From Mustelus asterias (Eukaryota): a DNA stretch of 64,000 nt. Under the pieces are notes generated by a model that was not told the DNA's origin, ran no database searches, and saw nothing but the letters and a program-made list of their open reading frames with translations. Positions within the stretch are counted from its first letter, which is position 1. Each line of letters starts with the position of its first letter. Shown piece by piece: positions 2,132 to 41,526 of the stretch. The DNA lies in contig NC_135826.1 of NCBI RefSeq assembly GCF_964213995.1, forward strand, positions 9,114,001-9,178,000. Reading direction: 5' to 3'. Position numbers and translations under genes: made by a program.

Positions 2132-5100
2132 ATGGCATCCACAACAGAAGAACAGCTTTCCAAAGTTGCAGAAAGCCAAGAAAGTGGTAACCAGGTAGTT
2201 ACTGCTAGGGGTATGATGGAATGAAATGTTAACATATTTTAAATGTACTTTAGTTGCTTGGATAGGAAAGAGCCAAGTTTTAGTAACATGTCTGTCTTGG
2301 CTAAATAACCAAGCAATCAGCTGTGCAGTGAGTTGGGTCTAACATTTTAATTCTATTGAGTTAACTGCCATGAAGTCTCCTGAAGAAAATAGAATTGTTA
2401 GCAATTAAGGCATTTGGTTCAATTAAATTTCTTAAATATACAATTAAATGTTTTAGCTGTTTGACTTGGAGTACTGAATAATGCCTAAAATTATGGCAGT
2501 TTCCCTGATTCATCCAAATTCCCAAAGAGTGTAATTTAATTTCACTCTAATTAAAACTTTCAAACTCTTGAAGCTGCTAATCTAATATAATGCCCTTATT
2601 TCAAATCAAACCCTGGAGTGAAGACCACTGCATATGTTGGGGTCAAAAATGGTCTCCAGAATTTGGCTAGAATTTTTAAAGGTGCAATATACTTATAGAT
2701 CTGCATGTTACATAACTTGTAATCATCAGATTGAGCTGCCACATCCCAATGTGTTACAGGCCCTTGTTGAAACTGGGAATCTAGTGACCCTGAGTGATGT
2801 ACAAGGTCAACTGGAACAAACTAAAGCTGTTGTGGTTGAGGATGCCAGTATTGTGTGTCGACTTGTGGCGACTGGTGTGGATATTTCTCTCATCAAACCT
2901 GAGGAACTAGTTGATCACTACCTTCCTGTGACCAAGGAAGAACTAGGTATCTAAACTTTGTACTGTCATCTTTTATAAATCAATTTTTAATCATTGCTGA
3001 TCTTCAACCTGAAGACTTGACTTCCTTTCTATTTCAGCTTTGGCTAAAGTGGCCACTCCTATTGATGGTTCTGATACAGCAACAGTAGTGGAACAGAATT
3101 ATGTACGTTTGGGATCTTTATCCTCTAAGGTTCGCAATCGTGCATATGAGTATTCTGTAGCCAAAATACAGAGAGCCAAGGAGATTGGCCAGGAAACACT
3201 CTCTCATCTCCAAAACCTTGTAGATCTGGTAAGACAAGTCTTGATTGTAGATGCCACATTAACTGTGCTTGAGAAACTGCATCTAGTAAAATTCCTGTTT
3301 ATAGTGGCAGGCAAACTCATTAGGAAAGTTGTGCTAATTGAGTCTTGCATGGACTAATTGGGCTGATTTAACCATTCTGTGAAATATGGTTGCAACAGTT
3401 TTTACTTGTTTCCTTCCCCATTACCTGATAAATCTCTTTGCATGCTATGCCTTGATATCCTTTTCCTCTGCATCTGAGATTCATGCTTGATTCTTCAATT
3501 CTCAGTGGTCTCTGTATGAGGATGCTTCTGTTAAGTTAACCCAACAATTTTTGGGATTCTTCAATAACATAACTTGTCATTGTATTTCCAGATTGAAATA
3601 ACCAAGAAAGAGGCTGAATCAGCAAACAAACTACAAGATATTCAAGTCAAACTAAATCGGGTCCTACTCGACTGGAAAAAACACCAGCCAAGTGATCAAG
3701 CTCAAGAGGAACTGTCTGAAAAACCTGAAGTAAGAACTTGATATCCAATAATAGTCTCACACTTCTAACCAAGAGACATGAAAGGGCAGCCATTCTGGTG
3801 AAGGTTTTCTCCTGACTGTCTTCCCCTCTACCGTGGCTACGTTCGCGGCCAGGTGTCCCTGGAGAGGGAGCATGCGGTGTCCACGGGCGAGGTTGACGCT
3901 TTCCGTGCCCGCTGGGCACCACGGGTTGGGGTGCATTATTGACCCTAATAATCACATTTTAATTTGATGTTTTTAAGTTTCCTTTGTACTTTGATTTCTG
4001 TTCGGGCTGTTCCCCCTCCTTTTTGGGGAGCTGCCCCTTTTACTTTGTTCTGATTTAATCTGAGTTTGTTTACTTGGTTTGGTTTGACCTGAAAAGAGGA
4101 CAGCAATTATAAGCAGGCCATTCTTCCCTAATGAAGTTGGTTACTTAGTACTAGCCCTGCCACTAATAAAACAGTGCAGCAAAATCTTATCCTTCCAAAA
4201 GGTCAACCTTGGATGGGGTTGGTTTCCTTCAGTGGAACTAATTTTAAGGTGTCAATACCTTGGGCCTTTAACTCCAAGAAGAGTCGGCTGTTAATGCAAC
4301 ATTTTGTCCTTCAGTCAATACTAAAAACACTAGGGGCTATTCCATTTGCCCAGAACTTGCTTTCAACAAAACATCCATCCAAGATGTATCTTGAGCATTA
4401 GTGATGTGAAGGTGTATGTGCAAAATTGGTGGGAGAATATATGATGGAAGCTTTTGAGGATGAGGTTCAAACTAGGAAGGAATGGATCAGTTGGATTTGG
4501 TGCCAGTTTTGGAATGGCGTGACATCAAATTTTTGGAAGGCTGGTCAGGAAACTGAAAATAATAGGGATTACAGGGAGATGGGTCTTGGTGACATGGGGA
4601 CTTTCAGAAGTTCATCTTCGTTAAATGACAAAAGTTGCAAACTGTCTGGATGTTAGCTGGTGTCTCCTTTGAAGGGGCAGAGGACTTATCATTTCCTCAT
4701 GACTCACCCCAAGTTTCCAAAGTAACAGCTACTAAAAGGGTTATAGGCTTGAAACTAAATTTCATTTTTAATATTGCAGCAACTTGAAACCCAGTCACTG
4801 GCTGTGACTCAGAATTTCTCTGATCAACTCCAAACCATCTGCCGAACACTGGCTTCAAATGTTCGTGGTTTGCCTCAGAATATTGAGGATCAAGTGCAGC
4901 ATGTGTGTAAACTGGCAGAAGAGATCTACAGCACTCTTTCGTCCGCCACCTCTTTCCAAGATCTCTCCACACAATTCCTGACCCAGAGTAAAGAGCAAAT
5001 GCTGAAGATCCATGAGGGACTGGAAGGGGTGATGGATTACCTGCTTCATGCCACACCTCTTAACTGGCTGGTGGAACCCTTCATCCCCCAGGTCACTGAA

Positions 5101-5181
5101 GAACCGAAGCATCTGGGTTCATCAATGAAGCAATCTGCGGTTGTGCCCCAAAAGAGGGAGGAAAAGGAGATTATTTCATAA
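2132..5181 (+). CDS. Perilipin-family paralog A (perilipin-2/3-like) lacking the PAT-domain exons, ~326 aa
   Basis: GT-AG exons 2132-2194, 2760-2946, 3038-3228, 3592-3729, 4780-5181 with compatible phases and no stops. Motifs [31 protein letters not shown] at 5306. Confidence 0.8.
3811..4097 (+). mobile_element. Tx1-clade LINE 3' fragment in last intron of copy A
   Basis: Matches 1160-1440 (CTCTACCGTGGCTACGTTCGCGGCCAGG..CACATTTT). Confidence 0.8.
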
Positions 5182-5822: not shown

Positions 5823-6699
5823 GCTTTTTCGGGTACCAACGTAATAAACGAACTCAAATTAACTTAGGGACAAAGTAAAAGGGGTGGCTCCCCAAAAGGA
5901 AGGGGAGAACAGCCCGAATCAAAGTCGAAAGGAAACTTAAAACGTCAAACCAAAAGGTGATTATCAGGGTTGATAATACACCCCAGCCCCTGCGGTGCCC
6001 AGCGGTCGCGGAAGGTGTCAACTGCGCTGGTGGACACCACATGCTCCCTCTCCAGAGACATGTAGCCGCGGTAGAGGGGCAGACAGTCGGGATGGATGGC
6101 CCCGTCAATCACCCGCTGCCTGGACCTATTGATGGCGCGTCTCGCCAGGAGCAGGTTCACGAGGAGGTCAGCAAACTGACCCGCCCCTCTCCGCACCAGG
6201 TGCCTGTAGATCAGGAGCGTGAGACTGAAGTGCAAACAAAACATCAGTAAGAGGTGTTTCAGGAAACCAAAAAGGGTGTGCAGCCTAAAACACAGAACGT
6301 AGACATGGTCCACGGACTCCACAAGGCCACAGAAAGGGCAGTCTTGGGAGCCCGTGAACCGGAAAAAACTACGGTTGTACGGCACTGCTGCGTGCAGCAC
6401 CCTCCACCCCAGGTCCCCAAGATAATTGGGGGCGATCCCTCCATAGAGGGACCTCCGCCACCCGGCGGCAACAAGGCCCGCCAAGGTGTAGCCGGGCGAC
6501 AGGCGAGGACACGGTAGTGAAAGGAGTGCAGCAGCAGCAGCCCGTACAGGAAATGCCTCCGCGCGGTAGAAAAAGGCATGGAGGACATTTCCGCGAGGTG
6601 GCACATGCAGTGGGGCACCTGACCCGGTGGGGGGGGGGGAGGAGGTCTAGGCTTTGGGCCAATGTGCAATTCCGTCCGAGCAGGGGAACGCTCGGGCGG
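5823..6699 (-). mobile_element. Tx1-clade LINE, 5'-truncated, with CCHC C-terminus and TSD
   Basis: ORF 5945-6604: DLGWRVLH..CPFCG..ESVDHVYVLC. GCCTTTGGGTA at 5812-5822 and 6700-6710. Confidence 0.88.
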
Positions 6700-7125
6700 G
6701 CCTTTGGGTACAGCATCTAAATCCTCACAGCTCTGAAAATAAGATTCTCCTCATTCATTCCAATCATCGACGAAGGTGTTAAAGTTCTAACCTGACTGAC
6801 TCATTTGCCACAGGGAATATAATACCTAACCCTTCTAATTCAACCCTCATTTTCTTAAGTCTCATCCCCAGTAAACTTTCCCTTAAGTCGTTACATCTTT
6901 TCTGATGTGTGTTGCATAGAATTGCCCATAATCCTCCATGTGACACCCAACCACTATTCTCACATTTCTACTTTTATAATTCTATCCCTCTTGCTGTGTA
7001 ATCCTTGCCAATTGGCTTCCTTTCTGCACCTTATCGATTGTATAGAACATAGAACATAGAACAGTACAGCACAGAACAGGCCCTTCGGCCCACGATGTTG
7101 TGCCGAGCTTTATCTGAAACCAAGA

Positions 7126-8642
7126 TCAAGCTATCCCACTCCCTATCATCCTGGTGTGCTCCATGTGCCTATCCAATAACCGCTTAAATGTTTCTAAAGT
7201 GTCTGACTCCACTATCACTGCAGGCAGTCCATTCCACACCCCAACCACTCTCTGCGTAAAGAACCTACCTCTGATATCCGTCCTGTATCTCCCACCACGA
7301 ACCCTATAGTTATGCCCCCTTGTAATAGCTCCATCCACCCGAGGAAATAGTCTTTGAACGTTCACTCTATCTATCCCCTTCATCATTTTATACACCTCTA
7401 TTAAGTCTCCCCTCAGCCTCCTCCGCTCCAGAGAGAATAGCCCTAGCTCCCTCAACCTTTCCTCATATGACCTACCCTCCAAACCAGGCAGCATCCTGGT
7501 AAATCTCCTCTGCACTCCTTCCAGCGCTTCCACATCCTTCTTATAGTGAGGTGACCAGAACTGCACACAATATTCCAAATGTGGTCTCACCAAGGTCCTG
7601 TACAGTTGCAGCATAACCCCACGGCTCTTAAACTCCAACCCCCTGTTAATAAAAGCTAACACACTACAGGCCTTCTTCACAGCTCTATCCACTTGAGTGG
7701 CAACCTTTAGAGATCTGTGGATATGGACCCCAAGATCTCTCTGTTCCTCCACAGTCTTCAGAACCCTACCTTTGACCCTGTAATCCACATTTAAATTAGT
7801 CCTACCAAAATGAATCACCTCACATTTATCAGGGTTAAACTCCATTTGCCATTTTTCAGCCCAGCTTTGCATCCTATCTATGTCTCTTTGCAGCCTACAA
7901 CAGCCCTCCACTTCATCCACTACTACACCAATCTTGGTGTCATCAGCAAATTTACTGATCCACCCTTCAGCCCCCTCCTCTAAGTCATTAATAAAAATCA
8001 CAAAGAGCAGAGGACCAAGCACTGATCCCTGCGGCACACCGCTAGCAACCTGCCTCCAATCCGAAAATTTTCCATCGACCACCACCCTCTGTCTTCGGTC
8101 AGACAGCCAGTTGCCTATCCAATCGGCCAACTTTCCCTCTATCCCACACCTCCTCACTTTCATCATAAGCCGACCATGGGGGACCTTATCAAACGCCTTA
8201 CTAAAATCCATGTATATGACATCAACTGCCCTACCTTCATCAACACACTTAGTTACCTCCTCAAAAAATTCTATCAAATTTGTGAGGCACGACTTGCCCT
8301 TCACGAATCCGTGCTGACTATCTCGGATTAATCCGCATCTATCTAAATGGTCGTAAATCCCATCCCTAAGGACCCTTTCCATCAATTTACCAACCACCGA
8401 AGTAAGACTAACCGGTCTATAATTACAAGGGTCATTTCTATTCCCTTTCTTAAACAGAGGAACAACATTCGCCATTCTCCAGTCCTCTGGCACCATCCCC
8501 GTGGACAGCGAGGACCCAAAGATCAACGCCAAAGGCTCTGCAATCTCATCCCTTGCCTCCCAAAGAATCCTAGGATACATTTCATCAGGCCCAGGGGACT
8601 TATCGACCTTCAGTTTATTCAAAACTGCCAAGACATCCTCCC
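7126..8642 (-). CDS. CR1 ORF2, reverse transcriptase half
   Basis: KSPGPD, NYRPVSLTS, DFSKAFDKV, GVPQGSVLGP, FADD, RPHLEYC; uninterrupted ~500 aa. Confidence 0.92.
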
Positions 8643-8806
8643 AGTATACAGCGGGCAGCGTCGGGAGCGGGCAGTGTAGTGTGTGGGAAGCAGAGTGTGA
8701 GCTATAAGACTTTGGCTCACAGGGCTTAGGCAGAAAGGGCGAGTAGGGGTGAGTTTGAATTCATTTTTGCACTTTCTACCTGGTACTGGCAAGGTATCTA
8801 GAGGGG

Positions 8807-9733
8807 ATGGGTGTGCAGGCAGTGCAATGTTCCTCTTGCACTATGTTTGAGGTGAGGGACGACGACAGTGTCCCTACTGATTACACCTGTGGGAAGTGCA
8901 CCCATCTGCAGCTCCTCCAAAACCGTGTTAGGGAACTGGAGCTGGAGTTGGATGAACTTAGGATCATCAGGGACGCAGAGATGGCCATAGACACAAGCTT
9001 TAGGAATACAGTTACTCCGGGGATTGAAAACAGATGGGTGACGGTGAGAGGGGCTGGGAGGAAGCAGTCCGTGCAGGGATCCCCGGTGGTCGTTCCCCTT
9101 AGCAACAAGTATTCCGCTTTGGATACGGTTGAGGGGGATGACATACCAGTGGGGAGCCGCAGTGAGAGGATCTCCAGCACTGTGTCCGTCTCTGTGGCTC
9201 GGGAGGGAAAGGGGGAGAGCGGGAGGGCGATAGTTATTGGGGACTCGTTAGTTAGAGGGATAGATAGGAGGTTCTGTGGCAGCAAAAGAGACTCACGGAT
9301 GGTATGTTGCCTACCGGATGCCAAGGTCCGTGATGTCTCAGACCGTGTTTTCCAGATTCTGAAGGGGGAGGGGAAACAGTCACAAGTCGTGGTGCACATT
9401 GGTACCAATGACATAGGTAAGAGAAGGGACGGGGATTTAAAGCAGGAATTTCTGGAGCTGGGCTGGAAGCTGAGAGCCAAGACGAAACATGTGGTCATCT
9501 CTGGTACGTTGCCGGTACCACGTGATAGCGAGTTGAGGAACAGGGAGAGAGTGCAGTTAAATATGTGGTTGCAGGGATGGTGTAGGAGGGAGGGTTTCAG
9601 ATACGTGGATAATTGGAACACGTTCTGGGGAAGGTGGGACCTGTACAAACAGGACGGGGTGCACCTGAACCAGAGGGGCACCAATATCCTCGGAGGGAAA
9701 TTTGTTACGGCTCTTCAGGGGGGTTTAAACTAA
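8807..9733 (+). CDS. CR1 ORF1 (CxxC zinc finger, coiled coil, SGNH esterase)
   Basis: CSSC..CGKC, leucine heptads, IGDSLVR, HIGTND, DGVHLN; 308 aa intact. Confidence 0.88.
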   Translation: MGVQAVQCSSCTMFEVRDDDSVPTDYTCGKCTHLQLLQNRVRELELELDELRIIRDAEMAIDTSFRNTVTPGIENRWVTVRGAGRKQSVQGSPVVVPLSNKYSALDTVEGDDIPVGSRSERISSTVSVSVAREGKGESGRAIVIGDSLVRGIDRRFCGSKRDSRMVCCLPDAKVRDVSDRVFQILKGEGKQSQVVVHIGTNDIGKRRDGDLKQEFLELGWKLRAKTKHVVISGTLPVPRDSELRNRERVQLNMWLQGWCRREGFRYVDNWNTFWGRWDLYKQDGVHLNQRGTNILGGKFVTALQGGLN

Positions 9734-11134
9734 TTTGTCAGGGGAGTGGGAAAGGGAGTTGTAGTCCAGAAGTCAGTGAGGGTGGTGAGGTATTGGGGAA
9801 GGTATCAGGGTCAAGGGTGGGTACTGGTAGACAGGAAGGTGGGTTGAAGTGTGTCTACTTCAATGCAAGGAGCATCCGGAACAAGGAAGATGAACTTGGG
9901 GCGTGGATTGGTACTTGGGACTACGATGTTGTGGCCATTACGGAGACGTGGGTAGAACAAGGACAGGAATGGTTGTTGGACGTTCCGGGGTATAGATGTT
10001 TCACTAAGTGTAGGGAAGCTGGTAAAAGAGGTGGAGGAGTGGCATTGTTAATCAAGGATAGTTTAACGGCTGCGGAAAGGCACTTCGTGGGGGATCTGCA
10101 CACTGAGGTAATATGGGCTGAAGTTAGAAATAGGAAAGGAGCGGTCACGTTGCTAGGAGTTTACTATAGGCCCCCAAATAGTAATAGAGATGTGGAGGAA
10201 GAAATTGCTAAGCAGATTATGGATATGTGTGGGGGTCACAGGGTAGTTGTCATGGGGGACTTTAACTTTCCAAATATTGATTGGAACCTTTGTAGGTCAA
10301 ATAGTTTGGATGGGGCAGTTTTTGTGCAGTGTGTGCGGGAGGGTTTCCTGACACAATATGTGGATGGGCCGACTAGAGGTGAGGCCACATTGGATTTGGT
10401 ACTGGGAAATGAACCGGGCCAAGTGTTAGATTTGGTTGTGGGAGAGCAATTTGGAGATAGTGACCACAATTCGGTGTCTTTTGTTATTGCAATGGAGAGG
10501 GATAGGGCTGTACGGCAGGGCAAGGTTTACAATTGGGGGAGAGGTAATTATGATGCGATTAGGCAAGAATTAGGGGGCATAAGTTGGGAACAGAAACTGT
10601 CAGAGAAAGGAACTAATGAAAAGTGGAATTTTTTCAAGGAACAAATACTGGATGTCCTTGATAGGTATGTTCCTGTCAGGCAGGGAGGAAATGGCCGAGT
10701 GAGGGAACCATGGTTCACAAAAGAGGTGGAATGTCTTGTGAAAAGGAAGAGGGAAGCTCATGTCGGGATGAGGAAACAAGGTTCAGATGGCTCGATTGAG
10801 GGTTACAAGTTAGCAAGGAATGAGCTGAAAAAGGGGCTTAGGAGAGCTAGGAGGGGACATGAGAAGTCCTTGGCGGGTCGGATCAAGGAAAACCCCAAGG
10901 CTTTTTACTCTTATGTGAGGAATAAAAGAATGACCAGGGTGAGGTTAGGGCCGGTCAAGGACAGTAGTGGGAACTTGTGTATGGAGTCAGTAGAGATAGG
11001 CGAGGTGATGAATGAATACTTTTCTTCAGTGTTCACCAAGGAGAGGGGCCATGTTTTTGAGGAAGAGAAGGTGTTACAGGCTAATAGGCTGGAGGAAATA
11101 GATGTTCGGAGGGAGGATGTCTTGGCAGTTTTGA
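9720..11134 (+). CDS. CR1 ORF2, APE endonuclease half
   Basis: YFNARS, ITETW, YYRPP, GDFNFP, LDLVL, SDHN; ends EDVLAVL, where the RT half begins. Confidence 0.9.
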
Positions 11135-13187: not shown

Positions 13188-16100
13188 ATGGAGTCAGAAG
13201 TGGCAGAAAACATTGAGGTCTCCAAACCTTCCGAGCCCCAGGAGAACGGGGAACAGCAGGTACTGGAAGTGTGGGTTTTTAACTTTCGATTTTGTAGACT
13301 AGTTACTAAATACTGTAATCTAAAGTATAGTCTGAGGAAATCCTCGCCATTGTGTACTGTTGGGATCTGTGTATTTGTAAATTTCTTACTACTGCAATCT
13401 TAAAAAGGTGGCTTGTGAAATCCCCTCCATTGTGTACTGTGTGGATCTGTATTTACTGTCTGACTTGGTGACCTATAGCCCAGTTACTAAATACTGCACT
13501 CTAAAGGGTGGTCTGAGAAATCCTCACCATTATACAGGTTAAGATGATGAATTGCTTTCACTTCTGATGGGAAGTATTACTCACTGATTCAAACACTGTG
13601 GTTGTGTGACCCTTGGCCTAGTTTGCAACAAACTTGAAATACAAAGCTATAAAATTCGTGTGTGTTTGTGGAGGAGCTTATTTTGCCTCGGGAGAAAAAC
13701 TAAGCAGCGAACTTAGAATGTGACATCCATGCTCAGTTGTTATCCTTTTTTTTTTCTCTCCAAATTACCCACAGTCTGAAAGACATGCTAACCAGGGGAT
13801 TTTCACTGACTTCATTGCAGCATTAATGTCTAATTACTTGTGACACAAATGTTTATTCCTTGTGCTTTAATGAGGCCAAAACTGTTTAAAACATAATTTG
13901 TATTCATTTTAACTAATGGGTGGATGAGAAGGTGGTGTTGTCTAGGATTTGAAGTGGGGGAGGACAGATCCAGAGTAGCGCTTAAAATAACAGGAGTTTG
14001 CCACCAACTAAATGAAGGGATGAGGAGGTTGGGATAGAGGAGCTTGTAGAATGAGGTGGGGGAGGGGAGGAGTAAATCTTGTGCAGCTGTGAAAATGAGG
14101 ATATCTTGGGATTTTGTCTTGCTGTTTGGGTGACCTTTACCCTTTTCTTCCCCATTTGGCCTGCTGTATCCATGGTTCCTGTAAGAGCTTCTCGTTCCTT
14201 TTTTCTCTCCTTTGTCCTGGTCTTTCACTTGTAACGAGCAAAATCTCCTTGAAGGGCCTCAATTGAATCTGCTTCCTTTCACCACTGTTTTGGGGAATAC
14301 ATTCCATCTCCCAACCCTGTCATGTGAGACTTTATCCTCCTGTTATTGAGGTGGTTTTTTTTTTGCTAATTGCTATTCTCAGTCCTCCTCCTAAAAAGAT
14401 GCCAATGGGAGCAGTTTTTTCCTGTTTACTCTGTCCAGATCCCTCCCAAAGCCTCTATCAGGTTGCCATTCTTATGAATCTTTTCTGCATCCTCTCTCTG
14501 CCATTCACCACCTTCCTACAGCTGCCTTGCATTGAACACAATACTCTGGTGGAGACTGAACCAACAAATTTATGATAGCCTTTTGTATGGATCCCATGTG
14601 CTTTATTAGCCACTTTCTCAGCCTGCCCTGCCACCTTTTTAATCCTGTGTACATGTGTTAGCTAAGTGTGTTCAAAATGAGACAATACAGTTCTTTTTTT
14701 AAAAAAAAAAACCTTTGTTCATGCTGTCTGGTGTAAGGAAATGCAAAGATTTCATTAAAACAGGGTGAGGGGATAGGACAGGATCAATATCCTGGAGGGG
14801 CTAAATTTAGATATGCAACTAAAGAATTCCTTTTTGGGATGCAGCTTCTGTCTAGTGTTCAAAATTAAATTGGGGAGGAGGGAAATGGGATTGGTATTTG
14901 ACTGGAATGTCTAATTCCTTATAGCTGGCAAATACTGACCCAAAACAAAATTTAAAACTTAATGCTGGAAATAAGGCTCCTGCAGCATGTGGAGAGAGAT
15001 GGAAGAGTTGATATTTTGTGGTTAATAACCCTTTTCTGCCTGCAATAACTCCAAACTGGTTGAGCCTGAGTTAAGGTACAGCATCTAAAGTGGTAGCTAT
15101 AAACTATATGTACTAGGAAGAAATGCATGAAATACTTGCAATAAATGTACAAATTGATGTACTAAAATCCTTGCATAACCATCTTTTTAGGATGGTTGTG
15201 CAATCCATCTTGTATTTCCTTGCACTGTGAATGGGAAGTTGCTACAAGTCCAACTGACCTTCCTAGAATGATGCTGAGAAGCATTGCATCATTGGAATGA
15301 ATTACTGTGATTTGGCAATTCCATGACTTGTGTATTTCAGAATGTGGTGAGCCGAGTGACCAACCTGCCTCTTGTGAGTTCAGCCTATGACATGGTATCA
15401 GCTGTGTACAACAACACCAAGGAGAACCACCCATATGTGAAGACTGTCTGTGATGTTGCTGAGCAGGGAGTGAAGACTATCTCGGCTGCAGCTGTCAGTG
15501 GCGCCAAGCCAATTATAGACAAGCTGGAACCTCAAAGTAAGATTGGAGCTTGCATTACTTCAGTTGGCTGGAATTCAAACCTAAAATTTGCCCCTCAATG
15601 GGGGCTGGGTGTTTAAAAATAAAATAATTGAATATACTGCACCAGGACCCCTGGATACATGGGACCTCTTTCTGAATTATAAGTTTATTCAAACCTGCCT
15701 TTTGGGCAGATGAGCTTAACTTGGTACCCAGTGATATTTAAAAGGAACTAGAACTTCCCAAATAAATGATAAATTATTCTTGAAGCTCTTTATAAACTGG
15801 TATGAAATAAATTATTTACCAAGTATGATTAAGTTACAACTTCTAATTGTCACATGGCTTCACCCAAGTAAAGGAATACACATTCAAGTGTGAGATTTAA
15901 AGTCTATGCCCTGAAGGGGATTTGTTTTCTATTGAACTCTGCCTAACTGTGCATGGTGGAAGATTTTGGGTATGTATCACTGACTTTCTGGGGGCCCCCA
16001 GACCTATTGGGTGGCTGCAATGGATCCTGCTACTGTTTTTTTTCTAAATTAAAAGCAAGATGTCCAATAGTTGACCCTCAACCAGATTTGGCCACATTTG

Positions 16101-19100
16101 GACTTTATGGAGGTTTGTTGCTGTAGTGACTACTTTTGTTGGTCTGCCAAAAAGGCTAGTTGCATGCAGCTGTTGTACACAGCATCTGCTGCTAAACACT
16201 AGGAATTATTGCTTCATGAAGGAAAAGTGGGAAGTTATTTTCTGAGATCCAAGAATGGAAGGTACAGGCTGAAAGATTTGCATATTGAAGATTCAATTTC
16301 ATAAGTGGCAAATAAAAGCTGCAGAGTTCCAGTAGTACTAATCAACTGTGCTTTATTCAAAAGCTCCACTTTTCTGACTACTTAGAATCTGCAGTGCAGA
16401 AGAAGGTCATTTGGCCCATCAAGCCTGCACCGACAACAATCCCACCCAGGTCCTATCCCTGTAACCCTGCTAATCCCCCTGACACTAAGGGGCAATTTAT
16501 CATGGCCAATCAACCTAACCAGCACATCTTTGGACTGTGGGAGGAAACTGGAACACCTGGAGGAAACCCCCCACAGACATGAGGAGAATGTGCAAACTCC
16601 ACACTGTTGCCTAAGGTTGGAATTGAACCTGGGTCCCTGGCACTGAGGCAGCAGTGCTGATCACTGCACCACCGTGCCACCCTTGTTCCTTTCTAGGGAC
16701 TACTGAAAAAATTAATTGTAAAGAATCTTAGACACTTCAAGCTTTGCTTTGTACAACCCTTGGTCTGTCAGTCTAAGCTGGCAACCATGAAGTAGTCATG
16801 CACCACTTGGCTCTGATACACTTTGAAATCCAAATGCAGGCTTTGTTCCCAAGTAAAAATTTGGCTACTAGCATTTGTCGCTATGACATTGCACCAAAGC
16901 AGATGGGGTATTGCTGTATTGTGGGCCAATATAGGACATCCAATTTCCACTGGAATTCAGTGAGGAGTGGCTAGATTGTGGTTTATAAGATGCTGAACGG
17001 TCTGACAGTGGGGAAAGATGTATCCTCTTATGGGCAAGTCCCAGAACTAGGGGGCGCAGTTTTAAAATTGGGGATCACCCTTGGGCAGGGAGGAGAAATG
17101 TTTAGGATTGTCCATCATTGGAACTCTGTCTTAAAAGGTGGGGTCACTGATTTATTTTTAATGTGGAGGTAGATTGATTCTTGTTGGGCAAGGGAATTGC
17201 AGGTTACTGGGGGTAGATGGAAATGTAGCACTTGCAACATTAACAAATCAACCATGATATTGAATGGTGGAGCATTCACAAGGGATCAAATTCTGCTTTT
17301 TTTGTTTGAATCTGGTTTCAAAAGCTAAATGTACAACATTACATAATGTGTAAAATAATGACTGACTTTCAATTTCCCAACCCTTCAATAACTTGTAGCT
17401 AAACTTTTGAAGTAAGCCAACTGGATAATGAGATTTCACACTTTGGTTTGTCTCTAAGCAAAGGTTCTTCTGTGCTTAGTTACAGCTGCCAATGAATTTG
17501 CCTGTAAAGGCTTGGATAAACTGGAAGAGAAGCTTCCAATTCTTCAACAGTCCACACCCCAGGTAAGGAAATTATTGATTTTAAGGTACCTAGCTTTCAA
17601 ATGGATTGTAATGTACCATTGTAGATTACTGGAACAATCCACTTGAATCACTTTACTGTAGTGGCTGGTGAAACCACCAAGTTGTAACTTCTAACTCCAT
17701 CTTTAATTATCTACTTGGGTGGTGTTTCAACTTATCACCTAACTAGTTTTTTAAAAATGTCTATTTTTTGCTGGACCCTCATGTACAAGTTTAAAAAGAA
17801 ATTGAAATGTCAGTCAATATTTCAATGTCTGGATTTGGGTGTATGGAAGGAATCTAATTGCACAAGTCAATCTGGCAGATTCACCAGTTTCATCGGAATG
17901 CATGCATATTTTTTGGAATTGCCTCCTGTCCTGTGTGGATTGAGTTAAACAGTGAGGACCCAAGTGCTCACCCAAAACTGGATGTTTGCCCTCTTGCTAT
18001 GAACTGCATTGTCATCTTTTTTTTATAAATACAGGTTGTTGCTGATACCAAAGAGCTGGTTTCATCTACAATAACTGGAGCCAAAGATGCCGTCTCCAAC
18101 ACAGTGACTGGGGCTAAAAATACAGTGACTGGTGTAGTGGACCTGGCCAAGGGGACAGTGCATGGTGGCATTGAAAAGACCAAGACTATAATGGCTGAAG
18201 GAGTTAACACTGTCATGGCATCCAGAGTAGGGCAGATGGTGGTCACTGGGGTGGACAGTGCACTCAATAAATCTGAAGAGATGGTTGATCATTATCTTCC
18301 TATGACTGAGGAGGAGCTGGGTAAGAGGATTCATTTTGCTACCTCCTGCTTGAATTGGGATGCTTTTCTAATGGCCTTGGTGCCCTTAATCCTACCTAAG
18401 TGGTCAAGTTGGGTTTTGCATGCATTATACTCTATATACTGTCAACCTTGAGCATATATCCACCCCTCTCTGCAGAACACTTGTTTTTTAAACAGGAAGT
18501 GACATCGTTTGTTGGCACTTATTCCACTAACAATTCATTTCCTGCTTTTAAACTTCCCAATAAGGGAAATGGGTCTTGGAAAGTTCACGGTTGCATTCAC
18601 TTCATCACAGGGAATTTTGGAGCTCTTTGACTCTAGTTCTCCACCTTATTCCCAAGGTCCCTAACAGCCAAGAGCAAAATCCTTCTGTAGAGAAGGTTTG
18701 AGACTGCAGACACTTTCCATTAGAAGCCTTAACTGACATTTAAATGCCAGTTTAGCCAAGTATATTCCATTATCCGTCTGAGTTGAGAACATGGGATTGG
18801 GAGGGTGGAAGGAAGTTGAACAGTACTATTGTTCATCAAACTTGGAATGTAAAACCTGTCTTGAATAACAATTGTAAATCCTCTTGTTTCAGCAAAACTG
18901 GCTACCTCTGTTGAAGGCTTTGAAGTGGCCCCAGCACAACCACCAAGTTACTATGTGCGTTTGGGATCTTTATCTTCAAAAATTCGTCATCGAGCATACC
19001 AGCACTCCATTTCCAAGATGCAGCAGGCCAGGCAAAGCAGCCAAGACATTATGACTCAGCTTCACAGCACAATGGATCTGGTAAGAATACATACTGCTGG

Positions 19101-22100
19101 TGATCCTTGTGCTCCTGGGTGGTTTTGATTTGGCCAATAATGATAGCTGGGCTAAGGATCTTTCATCTATCTTGACTATTGGAAGGAATGTGCTCCTCCT
19201 TTTAAAAAGCTGGTGTCAATGTAATATCACTAGACAACTGAAATTTAGTCATATTTCTTTACACAACATCACTTTAACAGTTTGTTTGCATTCCAATTGT
19301 CCAAACTGGTCCCTCTGCCAATTAAGATAAGACAGCCAGGTCCAAAATGACCATTGAATTGAATAGTAAATGCTCCAATTGCCATTTGATGTCTTGAGCT
19401 GCATGTCAAAGCTACCACCCCAGGATTAGACTTCTCCTTTGCTCTATAGCTTGGGAGCATGCCCACACTCCCCAACCAAGGTTCACCAGGCCAAGTAGTC
19501 AAGGAATGTCTGCCTCACAACAATAGATTTGGTAAGATTGCTGTGTGGCATTGATCCACTACACTGCATGATACCACCCCAAGAAAATTCCTCACTTTCA
19601 GTAAACCATTGCTTGTTTTTGGCCACTCTAGATGTCACACTTTATTCCAATGGCTGGGTTCAAACGCAACTAAACAGGACCTGCTGTTGGGGTCAAACAT
19701 TTGGAAAGCCAAACAGTAAACATTGCCTGTCAATGACCCTTCATGTTGTTGTAATGAAAGTCATTGACCTGAACTTGCTGCTTTCTTGCTGTACTCATTG
19801 TAACAAATCTAGACTGAACTTTCTCAGCCCCCTTAGCTCAGTGGAGGGGTGCCTGGTGAAAACATTAAGGATCCATATCGACCAAGCCTGCCCACTACTG
19901 AATGGAGTCAGGCAACCAATTAAAATATTAACCAAAGACTCAGTGGTATTTTGCTGACATCAGAGTCTCTGTTGCTAACCTGTCTCAGCAGTGCCCATCT
20001 CTTCCCTTGGCGGCTGCTGGAGCTGCCATCTCTGAATCTGGCCAGCAAAATCAGAGGCCCATCTGCCATCCTTGAGATAACAGAAGTGACTCATTTGGAG
20101 GTTGTTTACAAGGGGAATAACTCAAATAGCAAACTGGCTCCCAGCAAATGCAGGTTCAGCATACATATTTTCTGGGGTCCTGAAGCCTGTGGAGGGAATC
20201 CTACCCAATATCTTTAACTTGTTGGCCTTCAAGACTGGCTGCTGTTGCACTGAAATGGGGTATGGAGAGATTGTACTTGGCTTTTGTCAAGTCAATTTGT
20301 CAACGTTATGACCAGCATGTTTGTTACTCTTTTGCAGATTGAATTGACAAGGAAAGGAGTAGATTCAGCAAATCAGAAGCTGCATGACGTTCAAGACAAA
20401 CTGCATCAGACCTGGGTTGATTGGCAGAAAAAACAACCAAAAGCTCAAGTGGAAGAAGAGGCTCAGAAACCGGAAGTAAGGATTCGATTTTATTCTTGGG
20501 ATCAGTGGGTGTAGATTGGGGCAGCTATTGTACAGAACCTTGCTATCAAAGGAAGGGCTTTGATTCTGATAGCCACTATACATTTTTTCAATTCCTTTAT
20601 TATATTCAAGAATAAATCCCTTCATTTCAAAGTTATTAAATTTGAAAGAATGCTTGTTTCTACTTGGTTGGTTTGTGATACCTGACATTTGCCATGTTGC
20701 CCGGACAGGTAGAAAGCTTGCCTTTGTGCAAAGTTCCAAGTGGTATTTTCCCCTTCTGGCCATATAATTGGGCAATGCAGCTACTCCAGTATCCCTGATT
20801 TTGAGAATGGGTTATTGACAATCTGCAACTATTGCATTGATACTTTCAATTCCTCTCTTCCTAGAAAAACAGTGACTTTCTGGGGCCAGCACCTCTCCCA
20901 GAAGCCATTTGTGCTTGGCCAAACTGGCCAGTGGGTTCTTTAAGACCTGTAGGGATTTGCATTCTAATCAGTATTCTGCAACTTGATTTTGTCTGTTTGC
21001 ACTGTTTGAGAGCACATTTCCACTCCATCTGACGAAGGAGCAGTGCTCTGAAAGCTTATGGTATTTGCTACCAAATAAACCTGTTGGACTTTAACCTGGT
21101 GTTGTGAGACTTCTTGCTGTGTTCTGTGTTCTTTAAGACCTATCAGGGAGGGCAATGTAGCTATATGGCTTTTTAATTTTTTAAAAAATTGTCTAGTATT
21201 GGCAAGAGTTGTAGAATCTCTTTCTTGCCTTGAGTGGAGCTGCTGCCTCGAAGTGCTGTAATCCTTTGTAGGGATGGTGTGACTTGGAGGTGACAGAACA
21301 TTGCTGCTCTTCCTCTTTCTGGTAGAAATGAAGTTCTCCCAGAGTAAGATTGATCGATTGAAATGCTGCAGTATACTGGGAATGAATATTAGTCCATGAC
21401 AATACATTGTTGCTGCTCCAGCCTGGTTGAGATGCACAATTGGTCATATAGGCTGCTACTTGTAGGTGGCATAGGAGGGCCAATTGCTGCTGCTTATGAC
21501 CAGACTGGTTGCTATTGTCTCCATTTTCAAGATGATTCCATAGGAAAACTCAATATTGGAGGTAGTCTGTCCTGGGTGGTCATTCCCTGCTACTTTGATC
21601 TACCTGCCTTCTGTCAGGCAAGGCTTTGATATTTTCAGCCAGAATGCCTAGATAGTGATTGTGATGGGAACACCAGCTTTTCTTCCAGTTCCCTACATCC
21701 TTCCACTGAGCTGTTTGAGTTCAATTGTTACTGAGGCATCCACTAACAAGGCACGGGTCGTAATCTAAGCAGACAACTTTCTAATGTGACTTTAAACTTG
21801 CAACTGCTCATTAGAACTCCTGTGGTGCAGTCAGGTTTTACTCTAGAAAGCTTGAGACCCTTTTAAAAAATGTGTCTTTTAGCCAGCACCAAAAGGTGAC
21901 CAAATTCTAAGTGTTTCTTTTTGTATTGCAGCAACTTGAGTCCCAGATGCTAACTATGACCCGCAGCCTCACCCAGCAACTACAGACCACCTGCCTGACC
22001 TTGGTTTCAAACATACATGGCCTCCCTCAGCATGTACAAGAGAAAATGCAGCAGATCCGCAACACTGCAGAGACCATCCACACCTCCTTCTCCTCTGCCA

Positions 22101-22297
22101 ATTCCTTCGGTGATCTCTCCGGGCAGCTCCTGGCACAGAGCCGAGAGCAAATGCTGAAGATCCGGGAATCCATGGATGGGGTGATGGACTACGTGCTTCA
22201 CAACACTCCCCTCAACTGGATGGTGGGTCCATTTGCCCCACAGCTAACTGAGCGCCCTCAGTCAGAGGAGATTGAAATGGATAAAGTTAAAGAATAG
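13188..22297 (+). CDS. plin3: Perilipin (perilipin-3/perilipin-2-like), full length, ~442 aa
   Basis: Exons 13188-13259, 15341-15536, 17480-17562, 18035-18320, 18893-19080, 20338-20475, 21932-22297, all GT-AG and in phase. PAT domain [34 protein letters not shown], 11-mer repeats, helix bundle, [10 protein letters not shown]. Symbol inferred from HDGFL2 adjacency; the sequence also has PLIN2 traits. Confidence 0.9.
13469..14143 (-). promoter_or_regulatory. Cluster of three DR1 (PPRE-like) elements in intron 2 of perilipin B
   Basis: AACT-GGGCTA-T-AGGTCA (13469-13485), AACT-AGGCCA-A-GGGTCA (13607-13623), AGGGTA-A-AGGTCA (14131-14143). Confidence 0.65.
16380..16683 (-). mobile_element. HE1/V-SINE-like SINE (CR1-type tail)
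   Basis: Same head, core and tail as 12165-12485. Confidence 0.78.
21016..21115 (+). ncRNA. Penelope-like terminal repeat with minimal type I hammerhead ribozyme motif
   Basis: 21025-21061: CCAT-CTGACGA-A-GGAGC-AGT-GCTCT-GAAA-GC-TT-ATGG, then AATAAA. Confidence 0.65.
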
Positions 22298-35722: not shown

Positions 35723-36477
35723 TTGATACCAATCAAGTAAACGAACTCAAATTAACTTAGGGACAAAGTAAAAGGGGCAGCTCCCCAAAAGGAAGGGGGG
35801 AACAGCCCGAACCAAAAACAAAGTCGAAAGGAAACTTAAAACGTCAAACCAAAAGGTGATTATCGAGGTCGATAATACACCCCAGCCCCTGCGGCGCCCA
35901 GCGGTCGCGGAAGGCGTCAACCGCGCCCGTGGACACCGCATGCTCCCTCTCCAGAGACACCTGGCCGCGAATGTAGCCGCGGTAGAGGGGCAGACAATCG
36001 GGATGGACGGCCCCGTCGATCGCCCGCTGCCTGGACCTATTGATGGCGCGTCTCGCCAGGCCCAGGAGCAGGTTCACGAGGAGGTCGGCATCCCGACCCG
36101 CCCCTCTCCGCACCAGGTGCCCGTAGATCAGGAGCGTGGGACTGAAGTGCAAACAAAACATCAATAAGAGGTGTTTGAGGAAACCAAAAAGGGTGTGCAG
36201 CCTAAAACACAGAACGTAGACATGGTCCACGGACTACACGAGGCCACAGAAAGGGCAGTCTCGGGAGCCCGTGAACCGGAAAAACCTACGGTTGCACGGC
36301 ACTGCTGCGTGCAGCACCCTCCACCCCAGGTCCCGAGATAATTGGGGGAGATCCCTCCGTAGAGGGACCTCCACTGGGGACCTCCGCCGCTCGGCGGCAA
36401 CAAGGCCCGCCAAGGTGTATCCGGGCGACGGGCAAGGACGCGGTAGTGAAAGGTGTGCAGCAGCAGCCCGTACAGGA
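35723..36477 (-). mobile_element. Tx1-clade LINE, 5'-truncated, with 12-bp TSD
   Basis: Near-identical to 5823-6550; GCAGTATTTCTT at 35711-35722 and 36478-36489. Confidence 0.88.
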
Positions 36478-36981: not shown

Positions 36982-39900
36982 ATGGCATCAACAACAGCAA
37001 ATGTTGCCAACACTACAGAGGGCCAGGAAAATGGAAGCCAACAGGTACAGCCTGTGTAGAGAGTATTAGCTTGTTTAATCAGTCAGTAAAGCTGTTTCTC
37101 TAAGTATAAGCATGTTAGCAAAATTGCAATGCTAGTTTCAGTAATACTCAATTCTTGACCTCCCCGAGGTGTATAAACTGACTGACTTCTGCCAAATTTT
37201 GATTCTATTGGTAGCCCCACAATCTTCTGCCTGATTACCCTCCCTATATTTATTTAAAAGAAATAATAAATGCAGCTGTGTAACTCACTAGCTTGTGCAT
37301 TTGTCTTTGATTGGAGGTAACTTGGGATGATTGCAAGTCAGTTGATTTTTAACTAAGGAGGTGGTGTTGCCAGTGGACTGGTAATCCAAGGAATCTTCTG
37401 GAGACCTGAGTTTGAATCTTTCCATAGTAAAATGTCTGGAGTTAAGTCTTGTCAGTTAGATTCGGAGGTTTACAGCATGGAAACAGGCCCTTCAGCCCAA
37501 CTTGTCCATGCTGTCTTTTCAACTAGGCTAGTCCCAATTGCCTGCATTTGGCCCATATCTCTCTATACCCATGTGACTGTCTAAATGCTTTTTTAAAAGA
37601 CAACTTTACCCACTGCTACTACCTCTGGCAGCTTGTTGCAGACACTCACCACCCTCTGGAAAAAATTGCCCCTCTGGACCCTGTTGTATCTCTCCCCTCG
37701 CCTTAAACCTATGCCCACGAGTTTTGGTCTGCCCCACCTTTGGGGGGGGGGGAGAAGTGAGCCTTATCTATGCCCCTCGTTGTTTTATAGACCTCTAAGT
37801 CTCCTATGCTCCGGGGGGAAAAAAAGTCCCAGCCTCTCCTTGTGGCTCAAACCAAGGCCCAGTAGCATCCTAGTATATCTCGTGCAGTCTTTCTAGTTTT
37901 AATAATATCTTAATTGTTTTTTAAAACCCATCTTGTTCACTAATGTCCTTTTTTTGGGGAAGGAAATCTGCTGTTCTGGTCTACATCTGACTCCAGAGCC
38001 ACAGCAACATAATTGACTCTAAATGCCCCTGGAGATGGGCAATAAATGCTGGCCAAGCCAGTGATGTGCCGTGCCTCCCCTCCCCTCCCCTCTCATTCCA
38101 CAAATGTATTAAAAAGACTTATTTGATGTTTGCCTTGCTGTCAGAATTGAATAGTGGTGGTCCATGTTTTTGTAGAAGCCATTTTTCCAAGCAAAATCAT
38201 CTGTTTTCAAATCCTGGCTAGATTTCTGCTAAATGGTCATCATTAATGGAGGCCAAAGCTAATTTTTTTGAACAACCCTATATTTCAGAATGTGGTTGAT
38301 CGAGTGACGAGTCTGCCACTTGTGAGCTCTGCATGTGAGCAAGTATCTGCTGCATATGTGAGCACCAAGGAGAGCTCTCCTGCTGTGAAGGCCATCTGTG
38401 ATATGGCTGAGCAGGGAGTGAAGACCATCTCTGCTGTGGCTGGTGCTAAACCAATTCTCAACAAGCTGGAACCTCAAAGTAAGATGAGTCGGGGTTTTGG
38501 AAATACTAGGCTTGCTGTCCAAATATTGCAGCACAAAGTGGTACAGTGAGTGTGCAGTTGCTAATGCCTGCATTCTCTTGTAACTATTTTAGGATGTTTC
38601 TAACAAGTAAAGCTACTGGACAGTTTTGAGAAATCTAGTGTTAACTACCTGGTCATGACTGCAACCGAGTAGACTTGATGGGTCAGCTGCCTGTCAATAT
38701 TTTGTATGTTTCTGGGTACACCTTGCTTAAGTAAAGTAGACTGTTTAAAGTCACTAGTTCTTGGCTCTAGATATATCATGTGATTCATGGGCAGCACTCT
38801 TGGCCAAATTGCGAGCTAGCATGGAAGACTATTATTCCTTCCTGATCCAAGAGCAATATAATAACACCATTGATCATGTTCTACGTTCAGTTGCAGTAGC
38901 TAATGAATATGCCTGCAAAGGCTTGGATAAGTTGGAGGAGAAACTTCCAATCCTTCATCAAGCTACCGATCAGGTTAGTGCTATGATTCACCAGAGGGAA
39001 AATACTCCCCATAAGGAGCTGACAATGTTAGTCTCAATTCACTATTTTAGTATCATTCTATATTTAGATACTATTAATGTTAAATCTACCTGTGTTTATT
39101 AGCTTCTAGTCTTTTGAAGGATAGCAAGTGCCCCTGGTCCCAAGCCATCTTGGCTTCTAGTAAAAGATGGCGCCTCTACTGTAAACATAAAGGTTCTGGA
39201 ATTTTGCCTGAGATGACAAATGCTCTTTGTAATCTAAGGGAAAGTAAACTTGTTGACCTCTTGCAGGTCCTTGCTGAAACCAAGGAGCTTGTGACATCTA
39301 AGATGACTGATGTTAAAGAATCGGTGATGGGGGTTGTTGACATGACGACCACTGCAGTGCAAGGCAACCTGGAAAAAACTAAAGCTGCTGTGGGTCAACT
39401 TGTGGCTACTGGTGTGGATACCTCTTTCCTCAAATCTGAGGAGCTGGTTGATTACTACCTTCCTATGACCAAAGAAGAACTAGGTAATATAACGGTTATA
39501 TAAATGTTGTCTATTGGCTTCAGTGAGCCTAATGCCAGATTGAAAACTGATCTAATAAATATACATTTTCCAGAAACCCTTGGGGCAGCCCTTTGGGTTT
39601 TCTGCTGTCCCTTCTATTGGCTTTACAATATCCTACTAGCTGAAATTGCAGGTGGGAGAAAAGTAGTTACTGCAGCCTGAGATGTTCACTTTTCTTTCAG
39701 CTAAAGTGGCTGCTTCCACTGAAGGCTCTGCCTCTGCAGCAGCACAAGAGCAGAGTTATTATGTACGTTTGGGATCTTTATCATCTAAAGTTCGTAATCG
39801 TGCATACCAGTATTCCATCACCAAGATGCATAGAGCTAAGCAGAATGGCCAGGAGACCCTTTCTCATCTCCACAATCTTGTAAACCTGGTAAGGAAACAA

Positions 39901-41526
39901 CAGATTTCTGGATGCTGTATTGGCTGTACTCTTCAGATCAATATTGTGAAGCAATCAATTTCTGTTTCTAGTCTCCAACCCTGGATATGTTTGCTTTTAT
40001 GATTCCTGACAGCTTCCCCCGCACCCCCCCCCCCCCACCCCACTGGAAATGTTCACATCTTCGCAAAATTTACTTAGTCACTAAGCACACTTCACCCCCT
40101 AGAATACTTTTGACATTAATTCACTTTATTCTCTATATAAATTGTGCTGTTTTAGATTGAGATGGCAAAAAGAAGCACTGAATCTGCACACCTAAAACTT
40201 GAGGATGTTCGAGCAACTTTAAATCCGATCCTGTCTGAATGGAGAAAGCAGCAACCTGAGCAAGGCCGAGCAAAAGAGGAACTATCTGAAAAATCTGAAG
40301 TAAGTGCCCCAGTATACAGTCTGCCATAATGTGTCCACTTCCATCCCCCTCCATCACTCAGCATTCACTTTTTTGTGAAGAAATGATATTCCTACCTGCA
40401 ACTGCGTCTGTTGGGCACCACAGGGGTTGGGGTGCGTTATTGACCCTGACAATCACATTTTAATTTGATGTTTTTAAGTTTCCTTTCTACTTTGATTTCT
40501 GTTCGGGCTGTTTTTCTCTTCTTCTCCCCCCCCCCCCCCCCTCCTCCTTTTGGGGAGCTGCCCCTTTTTGCTTTGTCCTGACTTAATCTGAGTTTGTTTA
40601 TTTGGTTTCCTCTAAAGAGGACAATTGCCTACCTATGACCTGTTCATCCTTAACTCTTGCTATGACACTCACCCCTACCTGTGACATTTCACCCCTTGGA
40701 ATCTATCTAACTGATTGGAATTTTCTTTAGAGCACTAGAAGCAAAAAGACATCCTCAGAATTTCCTGTCTTAAATGAATGACCCCTTTGCCAGAGCTCTA
40801 AATTGCCCACAGAACATTCTCCCACATATCCAACGTTTTTTTTCTGATCGATGTTAAGTCAACTGGTCTGTACTTGTTTTGTCTCCTTTCCTGCTCAAAT
40901 TTCCTGAAATGCCTTGGGACCCATTCTGCTCCATCATAAACTAGACAAAATTCAATAGTATACCTTTGCCATCATTGATTTATTGTACCATATATTAGGC
41001 ATTAACTGACTTAAATGATCTCAGACCTTTATACCTGACTTTTCTGACAACTTCAAAATTCCTAAATTATAAATGCAAACAATTTTAGTATTTTCTGTTC
41101 CCTTCTGCTTGCCAATGGACAAATACTGGCTGAAATGGGTCTGGACTAAACTAGTTTTCTTTATTCCAGCAAATTGAATCTGAAACACTGGCTGTGACTC
41201 AGAATTTCTCTGATCAACTCCAAACCATCTGCCGAACGCTGGCTTCAAATGTTCGTGGTTTGCCTCAGAATATTGAGGATCAAGTGCAGCATGTGTGTAA
41301 ACTGGCACAAGAGATCTACAGCACTCTTTCGTCAGCCACCTCTTTCCAAGATCTCTCCACACAATTCCTGACCCAGAGTAAAGAGCAAATGCTGAAGATC
41401 CGTGAGGGACTGGATGGGGTGATGGATTACCTGCTTCACACCATCCCTCTTAACTGGCTGGTGGGACCCTTCATCCCCCAGGTCACTGAAGATCAGGAGC
41501 ATCTGGGTTCAACTGAAATGCAGTAA
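36982..41526 (+). CDS. Perilipin-family paralog C (perilipin-2/3-like), ~413 aa
   Basis: Exons 36982-37044, 38289-38478, 38891-38973, 39267-39483, 39701-39888, 40156-40299, 41170-41526, in phase with no stops. PAT domain [20 protein letters not shown] at 41670. Confidence 0.9.
37355..38070. mobile_element. SacSINE-like element split by an antisense CR1 3' fragment (~37455-37910)
   Basis: SINE head ~37355-37450 and tail ~37920-38070 flank sequence antisense to 45930-46490. Confidence 0.6.
40405..40620 (+). mobile_element. Tx1 3' fragment in last intron of copy C
   Basis: TGGGCACCACAGGGGTTGGGGTGC..AATCACATTTTAATTTGATG. Confidence 0.75.

Follow-up and report, generated by a model that had tools for sequence, protein, structure and literature searches.

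A 64,000-nucleotide (nt) stretch of the Mustelus asterias genome (contig NC_135826.1, forward strand, positions 9,114,001 to 9,178,000), here called the window and numbered from its first letter, contains three tandem perilipin genes, A, B and C, all on the + strand and annotated with GT-AG introns and open frames. We found that the body of the last coding exon of the non-adjacent genes A and C is shared within species in a region-limited and lineage-specific manner, whereas the head of the same exon is copy-specific. This sharing is observed directly, and conversion is the molecular route that we infer from it: recurrent non-allelic gene conversion limited by homology is probably the best explanation of the pattern. 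The features that carry the finding are as follows.

2132..5181, + strand: gene A, a perilipin of 326 amino acids (aa) without a PAT domain, with five coding exons (2132-2194, 2760-2946, 3038-3228, 3592-3729, 4780-5181); GT-AG introns, open frame, Pfam PF03036, identical to record P0003.
36982..41526, + strand: gene C, a full-length perilipin of 413 aa with seven exons (36982-37044, 38289-38478, 38891-38973, 39267-39483, 39701-39888, 40156-40299, 41170-41526); exon annotation, PF03036, identical to record P0002.
4796..5121, + strand: homogenised tract in A, codons 7-114 of the last exon and residues 200-307, covering helices 2-4 of the bundle as well as the C-terminal portion of the alpha/beta subdomain; identity, synonymous divergence (dS) and structure mapping.
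41186..41511, + strand: homogenised tract in C, at an offset of 36390; identity and dS.
4780..4795, + strand: copy-specific head of the last exon of A (C counterpart 41170-41185), outside the tract in all six species compared; 34 copy-type versus 0 species-type sites.

An ungapped alignment of positions 4801-5100 with 41191-41490, at that offset, shows exactly 10 differences in 300 nt, three of them in the first 210, as the initial annotation of this DNA had counted by eye. On the A side the differences lie at 4848, 4918, 4944, 5012, 5025, 5049, 5050, 5054, 5055 and 5075. The codons at 4798-5121 (324 nt) hold 13 A/C differences, four synonymous and nine non-synonymous, with 8 non-synonymous versus 2 synonymous in the 3′ third of the tract; the opening six codons of the exon contain 6 differences in 18 nt. 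A BLAST search of the window against itself returned the A/C pair at 93% over 370 nt, and the same exon matched the B copy (21918-22251) at only 69%.

A comparison of dS (Nei-Gojobori method, NG86) exon by exon, which had been set beforehand as a check, was run in Mustelus and is not uniform: within the tract A and C show 4 synonymous differences for 75.8 synonymous sites (dS 0.055), versus A-C dS values of 0.33-0.98 elsewhere (E2 0.54, E5 0.33, E6 0.69, E7 0.98). Because the tract value is about 6-17% of that of the other exons, the last homogenisation in Mustelus is recent only in relative terms. In every exon A-B and B-C dS runs from 0.8 to saturated, and about 65% of synonymous sites in the last exon differ between B and A or C. 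Because A-C dS is low and both comparisons with B are high, A and C are sisters and B is distant; that the exchange skipped B, as noted earlier, calls for no special mechanism, B being itself homogenised with a twin of its own. When the 143 differences in 900 aligned coding nt were permuted, a 300-nt window with 10 or fewer differences arose in 0 of 20,000 permutations and an identical run of at least 69 nt in 14 of 20,000, and a Fisher test on synonymous sites gave p = 6 × 10−9.

Outside the exons little is left to align. Among eight non-coding A/C comparisons (60 shuffles each), five fell inside the shuffle range and the 3′ untranslated region (UTR) equalled the shuffle maximum; the stretch directly after the tract was in slight excess (score 29 versus a shuffle maximum of 25), and the intron 7 alignment lay far above the shuffles solely through a repeat fragment present in both copies. 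That repeat apart, the preceding exons, first codons, introns and 3′ UTRs are far more divergent than the tract, as had been described.

For the comparison with other species, 35 proteins among 156 candidates were taken from a last-exon search and the best 120 of 1615 from a profile search; the records represent 90% clusters, with relatives hidden inside clusters outside the comparison, and unnamed matches were left out. Among the matches listed, A/C pairs occur in Mustelus (which has an additional copy, A2), Scyliorhinus canicula, S. torazame, Cetorhinus, Heterodontus and Heptranchias, and in these six species A and C are 92, 94, 92, 81, 84 and 92% identical within the tract, respectively, and 47-77% identical in E7. 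In the tract tree, A, A2 and C of Mustelus group together (support 99/95), as do A and C of Scyliorhinus (99/99) and of Heptranchias (90/76), and Cetorhinus A joins the lamniform C proteins (80/92); the species grouping is clear for Mustelus and Scyliorhinus and weaker for Heptranchias and Cetorhinus. A clade of all A copies is rejected for the tract by the approximately unbiased (AU) test (p-AU 5 × 10−6; 3 × 10−7 under a mixture model), whereas in the tree from E5 to the E8 head all seven A copies fall together (94/92) and a Mustelus clade is rejected (p-AU 3 × 10−34). The proposed tree check in several species, which we ran on proteins, thus did not group the tract by copy.

Quartet sites give the same picture. 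In 14 non-independent species pairs, with the S. canicula-S. torazame quartet kept outside the A/C totals, copy-type, species-type and other sites number 3, 144 and 2 in the tract, 170, 35 and 13 in E5-E7, and 34, 0 and 2 in the exon head (first six codons). Species-type sites account for 21 of 105 in E5, 12 of 59 in E6 and 2 of 54 in E7; arranged by exon length, the species-type share is 97% for E8, 20% for E5 and E6 and 4% for E7. The view that the exchange is confined to the C-terminal helices therefore holds in that the tract codes for helices 2-4, but the exons in front of it form a gradient rather than a clean limit. Residues that are private to one lineage and common to A and C in the tract number 9 in Heptranchias, 4 in Scyliorhinus, 3 in Mustelus, 2 in Cetorhinus and 0 in Heterodontus, which supports independent homogenisation in four of the five lineages, Heterodontus being the exception. 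Between S. canicula and S. torazame the tract has 3 copy-type versus 2 species-type sites, so much of their homogenisation predates the species split, and in Lamniformes the tract seems to have been homogenised at an older date. Gene conversion, as initially proposed, is thus favoured by trees, AU tests and quartets, but a single recent event is not, the Mustelus exchange being the latest round of an old process: the same tract appears to have been homogenised independently in Mustelus, Scyliorhinus and Heptranchias, and earlier in Lamniformes.

Over the five lineages, the amino-acid distance in the tract is 0.11 between A and C of the same species, compared with 0.24 for C-C, 0.21 for A-A and 0.23 for A-C of different species, and in E5-E7 the same-species A-C distance equals the cross-species one; the tract acts like one locus per species. 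These values bear on strong purifying selection on protein and nucleotide sequence without any exchange, for which the elephant shark vasotocin/oxytocin exon 2 is a precedent among cartilaginous fish (PMC2656470) and which would suit a tract predicted to code for a folded bundle. Tract orthologs nevertheless show changes at 21-24% of residues, double the value for paralogs of one species, the paralogs have lineage-private changes in common and the AU tests reject grouping by copy, so at the protein level this explanation is refuted by trees, quartets and distances, and we regard it as very improbable. Collapse or mis-polishing of the assembly deserves mention, as the analysis covered the assembly alone. 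It is rejected, with a probability that we consider negligible, because 13 differences in 324 nt remain, both tract ends lie inside the exon and the pattern repeats in the records of five other species, each with its own lineage-private residues.

The additional copy A2 (P0004), a third copy beside A and C and itself PAT-less, lies on this contig beyond the window. Its tract is 94% identical to that of A and likewise to that of C, and a direct exchange across 36 kb, as suggested in the initial annotation, is therefore not established. The pattern could instead reflect double unequal crossover, repeated exon replacement or exchange relayed through A2. Cluster copy number does vary, with the extra A2 in Mustelus, A2 is equally close to A and C, and reciprocity is not visible from one genome; the tract is affected in every lineage sampled, which leaves no unconverted outgroup to indicate a donor. 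A single crossover would, however, make chimeric genes, whereas flanks and exon head are copy-specific on both sides in six species; the four other A/C lineages have one A record each among the matches listed, and A groups with A2 in the tract (96/90), so that A2 most simply arose after A or converts with it. We consider such routes improbable.

The second pair of counterparts in the cluster is formed by B and its twin.

13188..22297, + strand: gene B, a full-length perilipin of 442 aa and B1 type, with seven exons (13188-13259, 15341-15536, 17480-17562, 18035-18320, 18893-19080, 20338-20475, 21932-22297); exon annotation, PF03036 and B quartets.

Among the matches listed, ten shark species have two B-type records each and Callorhinchus has one B-type and one C-type record. 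The B gene that follows A in the window is of B1 type, and its twin B2 (P0063) lies on the same contig outside the window. In S. canicula, the 785-aa record P0001 consists of a B2-type gene fused to the downstream A, which is probably a gene-model error yet informative on gene order. The simplest history would be a tandem duplication of a B-C block into B2-A-B1-C, and under this history A and C are non-adjacent by construction. We counted 21 B quartets from seven species, using 7 of 10 pairs and leaving out the B genes of Heptranchias and Cetorhinus and two pairs from Orectolobiformes. Copy-type to species-type sites of B1/B2 number 0:46 in E2, 3:88 in E3, 2:39 in E4, 1:130 in E5, 7:45 in E7 and 0:154 in the E8 body, and E6 (29:10) and the tail (28:18) are mostly copy-specific.

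Conversion templated by complementary DNA (cDNA), in which the reverse-transcribed mRNA of one copy enters the other, would favour exons and the 3′ end, and the A/C tract is exonic and 3′-terminal in a cluster that holds retroelements with reverse-transcriptase domains. Against it, no intron has been lost in A, B or C, the tract begins about 17 nt inside the exon and stops short of the 3′ UTR, and the B pair is homogenised in 5′ as well as 3′ exons. DNA-DNA conversion already accounts for the exon limit because the introns are unalignable, and we give the cDNA route little credence.

Homology-limited conversion would have proceeded as follows. An ancestral two-gene block B-C, single in the chimaera records found, would have been tandem-duplicated in early elasmobranchs, and A then lost its PAT-domain exons, as its gene structure indicates, leaving a putative bundle-only perilipin. 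Ectopic DNA-DNA conversion between counterparts would have continued in separate lineages, reaching most exons in B1/B2 and almost only the last exon in A/C. Because this exon is the only unbroken A/C homology of appreciable length left (about 330 nt, the introns being unalignable and the other exons 60-220 nt), conversion would persist there. Purifying selection would keep the exon recombination-competent, each conversion would reset its divergence, and the diverged first ~17 nt, presumably unable to anchor a tract end, would stay copy-specific. Selection for identity is not required, although it may contribute. The G+C content at third codon positions (GC3) is higher in E8 of A (0.51 versus 0.33, p = 0.001) and of C (0.51 versus 0.38, p = 0.03), as well as in B, a comparison made without an unconverted single-copy control. 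In humans, non-allelic tracts have a mean length of about 250 bp and a GC bias, and they dwindle with growing divergence of the duplicates (10.1101/135152); the E8 rise has the same direction.

Several points weigh against this explanation. The GC3 rise of A is not significant at four-fold sites (p = 0.07). A pure exon-length rule fits A/C and was rejected for B1/B2, in which the short E2 (72 nt) and E4 are homogenised and E6 (188 nt) is not, a pattern that suggests that E6 is under selection. In Mustelus the gene order comes from the window, outside which B2 and A2 lie. Five more sharks, of 11 species with a C record, have no A-type protein among the matches listed. Neither tract tree joins A and C of Heterodontus, and the Heptranchias pair reaches just 90/76, with no resolved grouping under the mixture model. 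A species-type quartet site requires conversion in just one of two lineages, which is why the lineage-private residues were counted too. Finally, the other sharks were compared through protein records only, so that dS, introns and tract ends at the DNA level refer to Mustelus.

Because the tract codes for most of a folded domain, its position was also considered in terms of the structure of A. Residues 59-301 of A match the mouse PLIN3 bundle structure 1SZI (E = 1 × 10−48), which is the C-terminal four-helix bundle. An AlphaFold2 model places helices at residues 113-154, 192-220, 226-248 and 257-284, with a predicted local distance difference test (pLDDT) score of mostly 80-93 in the helices and a whole-model mean of 58. 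In this model three of the four long helices (192-220, 226-248 and 257-284) are encoded by the last exon (residues 194-326), and helix 1 and an extra helix by E6-E7. Gene A lacks counterparts of E3 and E4, the exons that code for the PAT domain in B and C, and the reading frame is kept across the skip.

2195..2759, + strand: intron of A in the place of the missing PAT-domain exons (E3 and E4 of B and C); in-frame skip, null tblastn result.

A tblastn search of this 565-nt intron with eight shark and chimaera perilipins for a decayed PAT exon returned nothing at E ≤ 1. The sole trace of a relic, a 13-nt match to E3 of C (E = 1.3), is not claimed. The PAT domain occurs in B and C and is absent from all seven A-type shark proteins of six species; the ray proteins P0019-P0021, which have a degenerate N-terminus, group with A. 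Gene A has a short repeat region and has kept the sequence of the alpha/beta subdomain, and its gene structure predicts that it is close to a bundle-only perilipin. A and A2 of Mustelus have Glu (A 5074-5076) where the C-terminal motif has a glycine conserved to 90% or more, and E5 of A (2760-2946) has a further deletion relative to A2. Judging by these two features, A may be under relaxed selection.

Alternatively, conversion may be sustained by selection for identity, if A and C need the same helices 2-4 and cleft surface for a lipid ligand, a partner or droplet co-assembly, while helix 1, helix 5 and the tail serve functions peculiar to each copy and are shielded from conversion. The 5′ tract boundary is the same in all six species, and A/C and B1/B2 are alike in that the last-exon body is homogenised and E6 mostly copy-specific. 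Two of the three human PLIN3 cleft segments (337-349 and 412-429; PMC13382019) would map into the tract through an ungapped 1SZI alignment. Selection has also been argued for TLR1/TLR6 (PMC2077338) and, as speculation, for BMP8A/B and TUBG1/2 (PMC2720389). On the other hand, tract divergence between species (0.21-0.24) exceeds that of C orthologs in E5/E6 (0.16), Glu replaces the near-invariant glycine in A and A2, and divergence is tolerated in Cetorhinus (81%) and Heterodontus (84%); the excess of non-synonymous differences in the 3′ third of the Mustelus tract indicates that identity is not enforced now. We consider selection for identity unlikely, and homology-limited conversion remains our preferred explanation.

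Because A and C are both present in Heptranchias, the pair is older than the split of that lineage (Triassic or earlier). A 2026 preprint dates the split of Hexanchiformes to ~280 million years ago (95% highest posterior density interval 233-344), and earlier studies placed it in the Triassic (10.64898/2026.02.13.705779). A ray protein whose N-terminus is degenerate joins A in the tree (92/92), its branch being long, which would place the duplication before the shark-ray split, dated near 300 million years ago (PMC12318234).

Gene conversion itself is textbook and no new mechanism is involved; the shark perilipin pair is a new and apparently unreported instance. It offers an unusually clean and old case, in which a single exon with a fixed 5′ boundary has been homogenised independently in four or more shark lineages, and the B1/B2 pair of the cluster provides an internal comparison. 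Together, the two pairs can be used to ask whether long-lived conversion needs selection or merely a long enough exon. They also illustrate how whole-protein trees and names mislead, since A and C are labelled perilipin-2-like yet lie outside PLIN2, and a third of each protein follows the species. Gene A, as a conserved PAT-less perilipin with short repeats, is a natural construct for what the four-helix bundle does alone. A doubtful but consequential proposition is that a bundle-only shark perilipin has had helices 2-4 matched to its full-length sister for more than 200 million years through selection for a shared cleft or partner surface. If true, the specificity of the perilipin bundle would be determined by helix 1, helix 5 and the tail, which resist conversion. 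What the bundle contributes to droplet targeting is disputed, and the cluster would address it as a domain-swap experiment made by nature; the case would also rank among the longest-running in vertebrates for regional gene conversion. Gene A with its missing PAT domain, and the comparison of A/C with B1/B2, most deserve to be followed.

Concerning the remaining content of the window, the A and C proteins are letter-identical to the NCBI Mustelus asterias models P0003 and P0002. Five of six exon translations score above the curated cut-off of PF03036, and E5 of A matches at E = 4 × 10−7, below the whole-protein cut-off. A tblastn search of the window with shark and chimaera perilipins found no further perilipin exons, its nine matches outside known exons having E-values of 0.41-0.85, and no non-perilipin neighbour gene was identified within the window. 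Where 41524-41540 is compared with 5131-5147, the stop codon of C aligns with a Gln codon in the longer tail of A, so the start of the C 3′ UTR is homologous to the coding tail of A; lamniform C proteins end at the same place as Mustelus C. The same 7-residue deletion occurs in Mustelus C (~39385, exon 39267-39483) and S. canicula A (P0001) and is absent from their sister copies, which may reflect recurrent slippage or an old transfer.

3810..4102, + strand: intron 7 repeat fragment of A, sister to the copy in intron 7 of C (40404-40623); no other intron DNA is alignable.

The two intron 7 repeats have the same orientation, lie near the donor site and share a few bases beyond their 3′ ends, and their 5′ ends differ. 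They are sisters (89.5% identity, 6 exclusive columns, 87/94), and two repeat copies at non-homologous places are nearer still (92.9%, 9 columns). An old intronic conversion or an independent insertion may be behind this, and repeat subfamily structure explains the sisterhood equally well. A nearly full-length long interspersed nuclear element (LINE) with a GDSL-esterase first open reading frame (ORF1), an endonuclease and a reverse transcriptase occupies 7040-11150; we take it to be CR1-like. Its 5′ part (8646-11145, + strand) is inverted relative to its 3′ part (8645-7040, − strand), with ~24 nt repeated at the break, a geometry that resembles twin-priming inversion, which is known mainly from L1. 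Between B and C, 29310-33999 (− strand) hold a long terminal repeat (LTR) retrotransposon with protease, reverse transcriptase, RNase H and integrase in Gypsy-like order and LTRs that are 96.7% identical. One repeat family is found both just downstream of A (5834-6551) and just upstream of C (35727-36477), in each case on the − strand, with 88.7% identity over 755 nt.

In a 28-protein tree, A, B and C fall with PLIN3-like proteins, outside a PLIN2 clade (100/100) that includes another Mustelus protein, its PLIN2; A and C carry the NCBI name perilipin-2-like but do not group with vertebrate PLIN2. The copies from sharks and chimaera make up a separate clade (100/99), whose sister is a PLIN3-like protein of Latimeria (93/91; midpoint root, in a set without PLIN1, PLIN5 and plin6). 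A literature search, with most subscription journals outside it, showed nothing among the papers listed on shark perilipin genes, perilipin conversion or a PAT-less shark perilipin, and the word "shark" is absent from the main text of the main perilipin phylogeny paper (PMC5342826). The mammalian PLIN3/PLIN4/PLIN5 cluster likewise consists of tandem perilipin paralogs (PMC5342826; 10.64898/2026.08.15.745046), and the four-helix bundle of shark A matches mouse PLIN3; the shark expansion is independent of it, as its own clade indicates. Human PLIN4, a known PAT-less exception, lacks the PAT domain like shark A, but it has a repeat region of near 1000 aa and no structured alpha/beta subdomain (10.64898/2026.08.15.745046), whereas shark A combines short repeats with a kept subdomain sequence.

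Among converted genes, mammalian TLR1/TLR6 are a close parallel. As described in PMC2077338, they are, like A/C, tandem paralogs less than 55 kb apart with a C-terminal region in which paralogs are closer than orthologs, and they combine independent conversions in many lineages with conserved boundaries, a copy-specific N-terminal part and a copy-specific extreme C-terminus. Their tract spans ~300 aa with known binding partners, compared with 108 aa framed by unalignable introns in sharks; unlike in TLR1/TLR6, shark A has lost a whole domain, and the shark pair is probably about twice as old. Exon 2 of the oxytocin/vasopressin (vasotocin) genes is similarly one near-identical exon in neighbouring paralogs, also in a cartilaginous fish (97.1% at the nt level), but there the identity extends into the introns on either side without a rise in GC3, and for elephant shark conversion was argued against (PMC2656470). 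In shark A/C, by contrast, the identity ends within the exon and comes with a raised GC3, and conversion is favoured by the comparison across species. BMP8A/B, DDX19A/B and TUBG1/2 are pairs older than 100 million years with segments evolving in concert per lineage, as in A/C; they were selected for homogenised introns (PMC2720389), whereas the shark introns are unalignable and conversion continues in only one exon. The variable exons of protocadherins have been described as prone to conversion (PMC1885805), as have the duplicate exons of newt Nav1.4 (10.1101/2021.03.25.437018). The sparing of E6 in the B pair, finally, resembles opsin exon 5 with its selected peak of divergence (PMC3924837).

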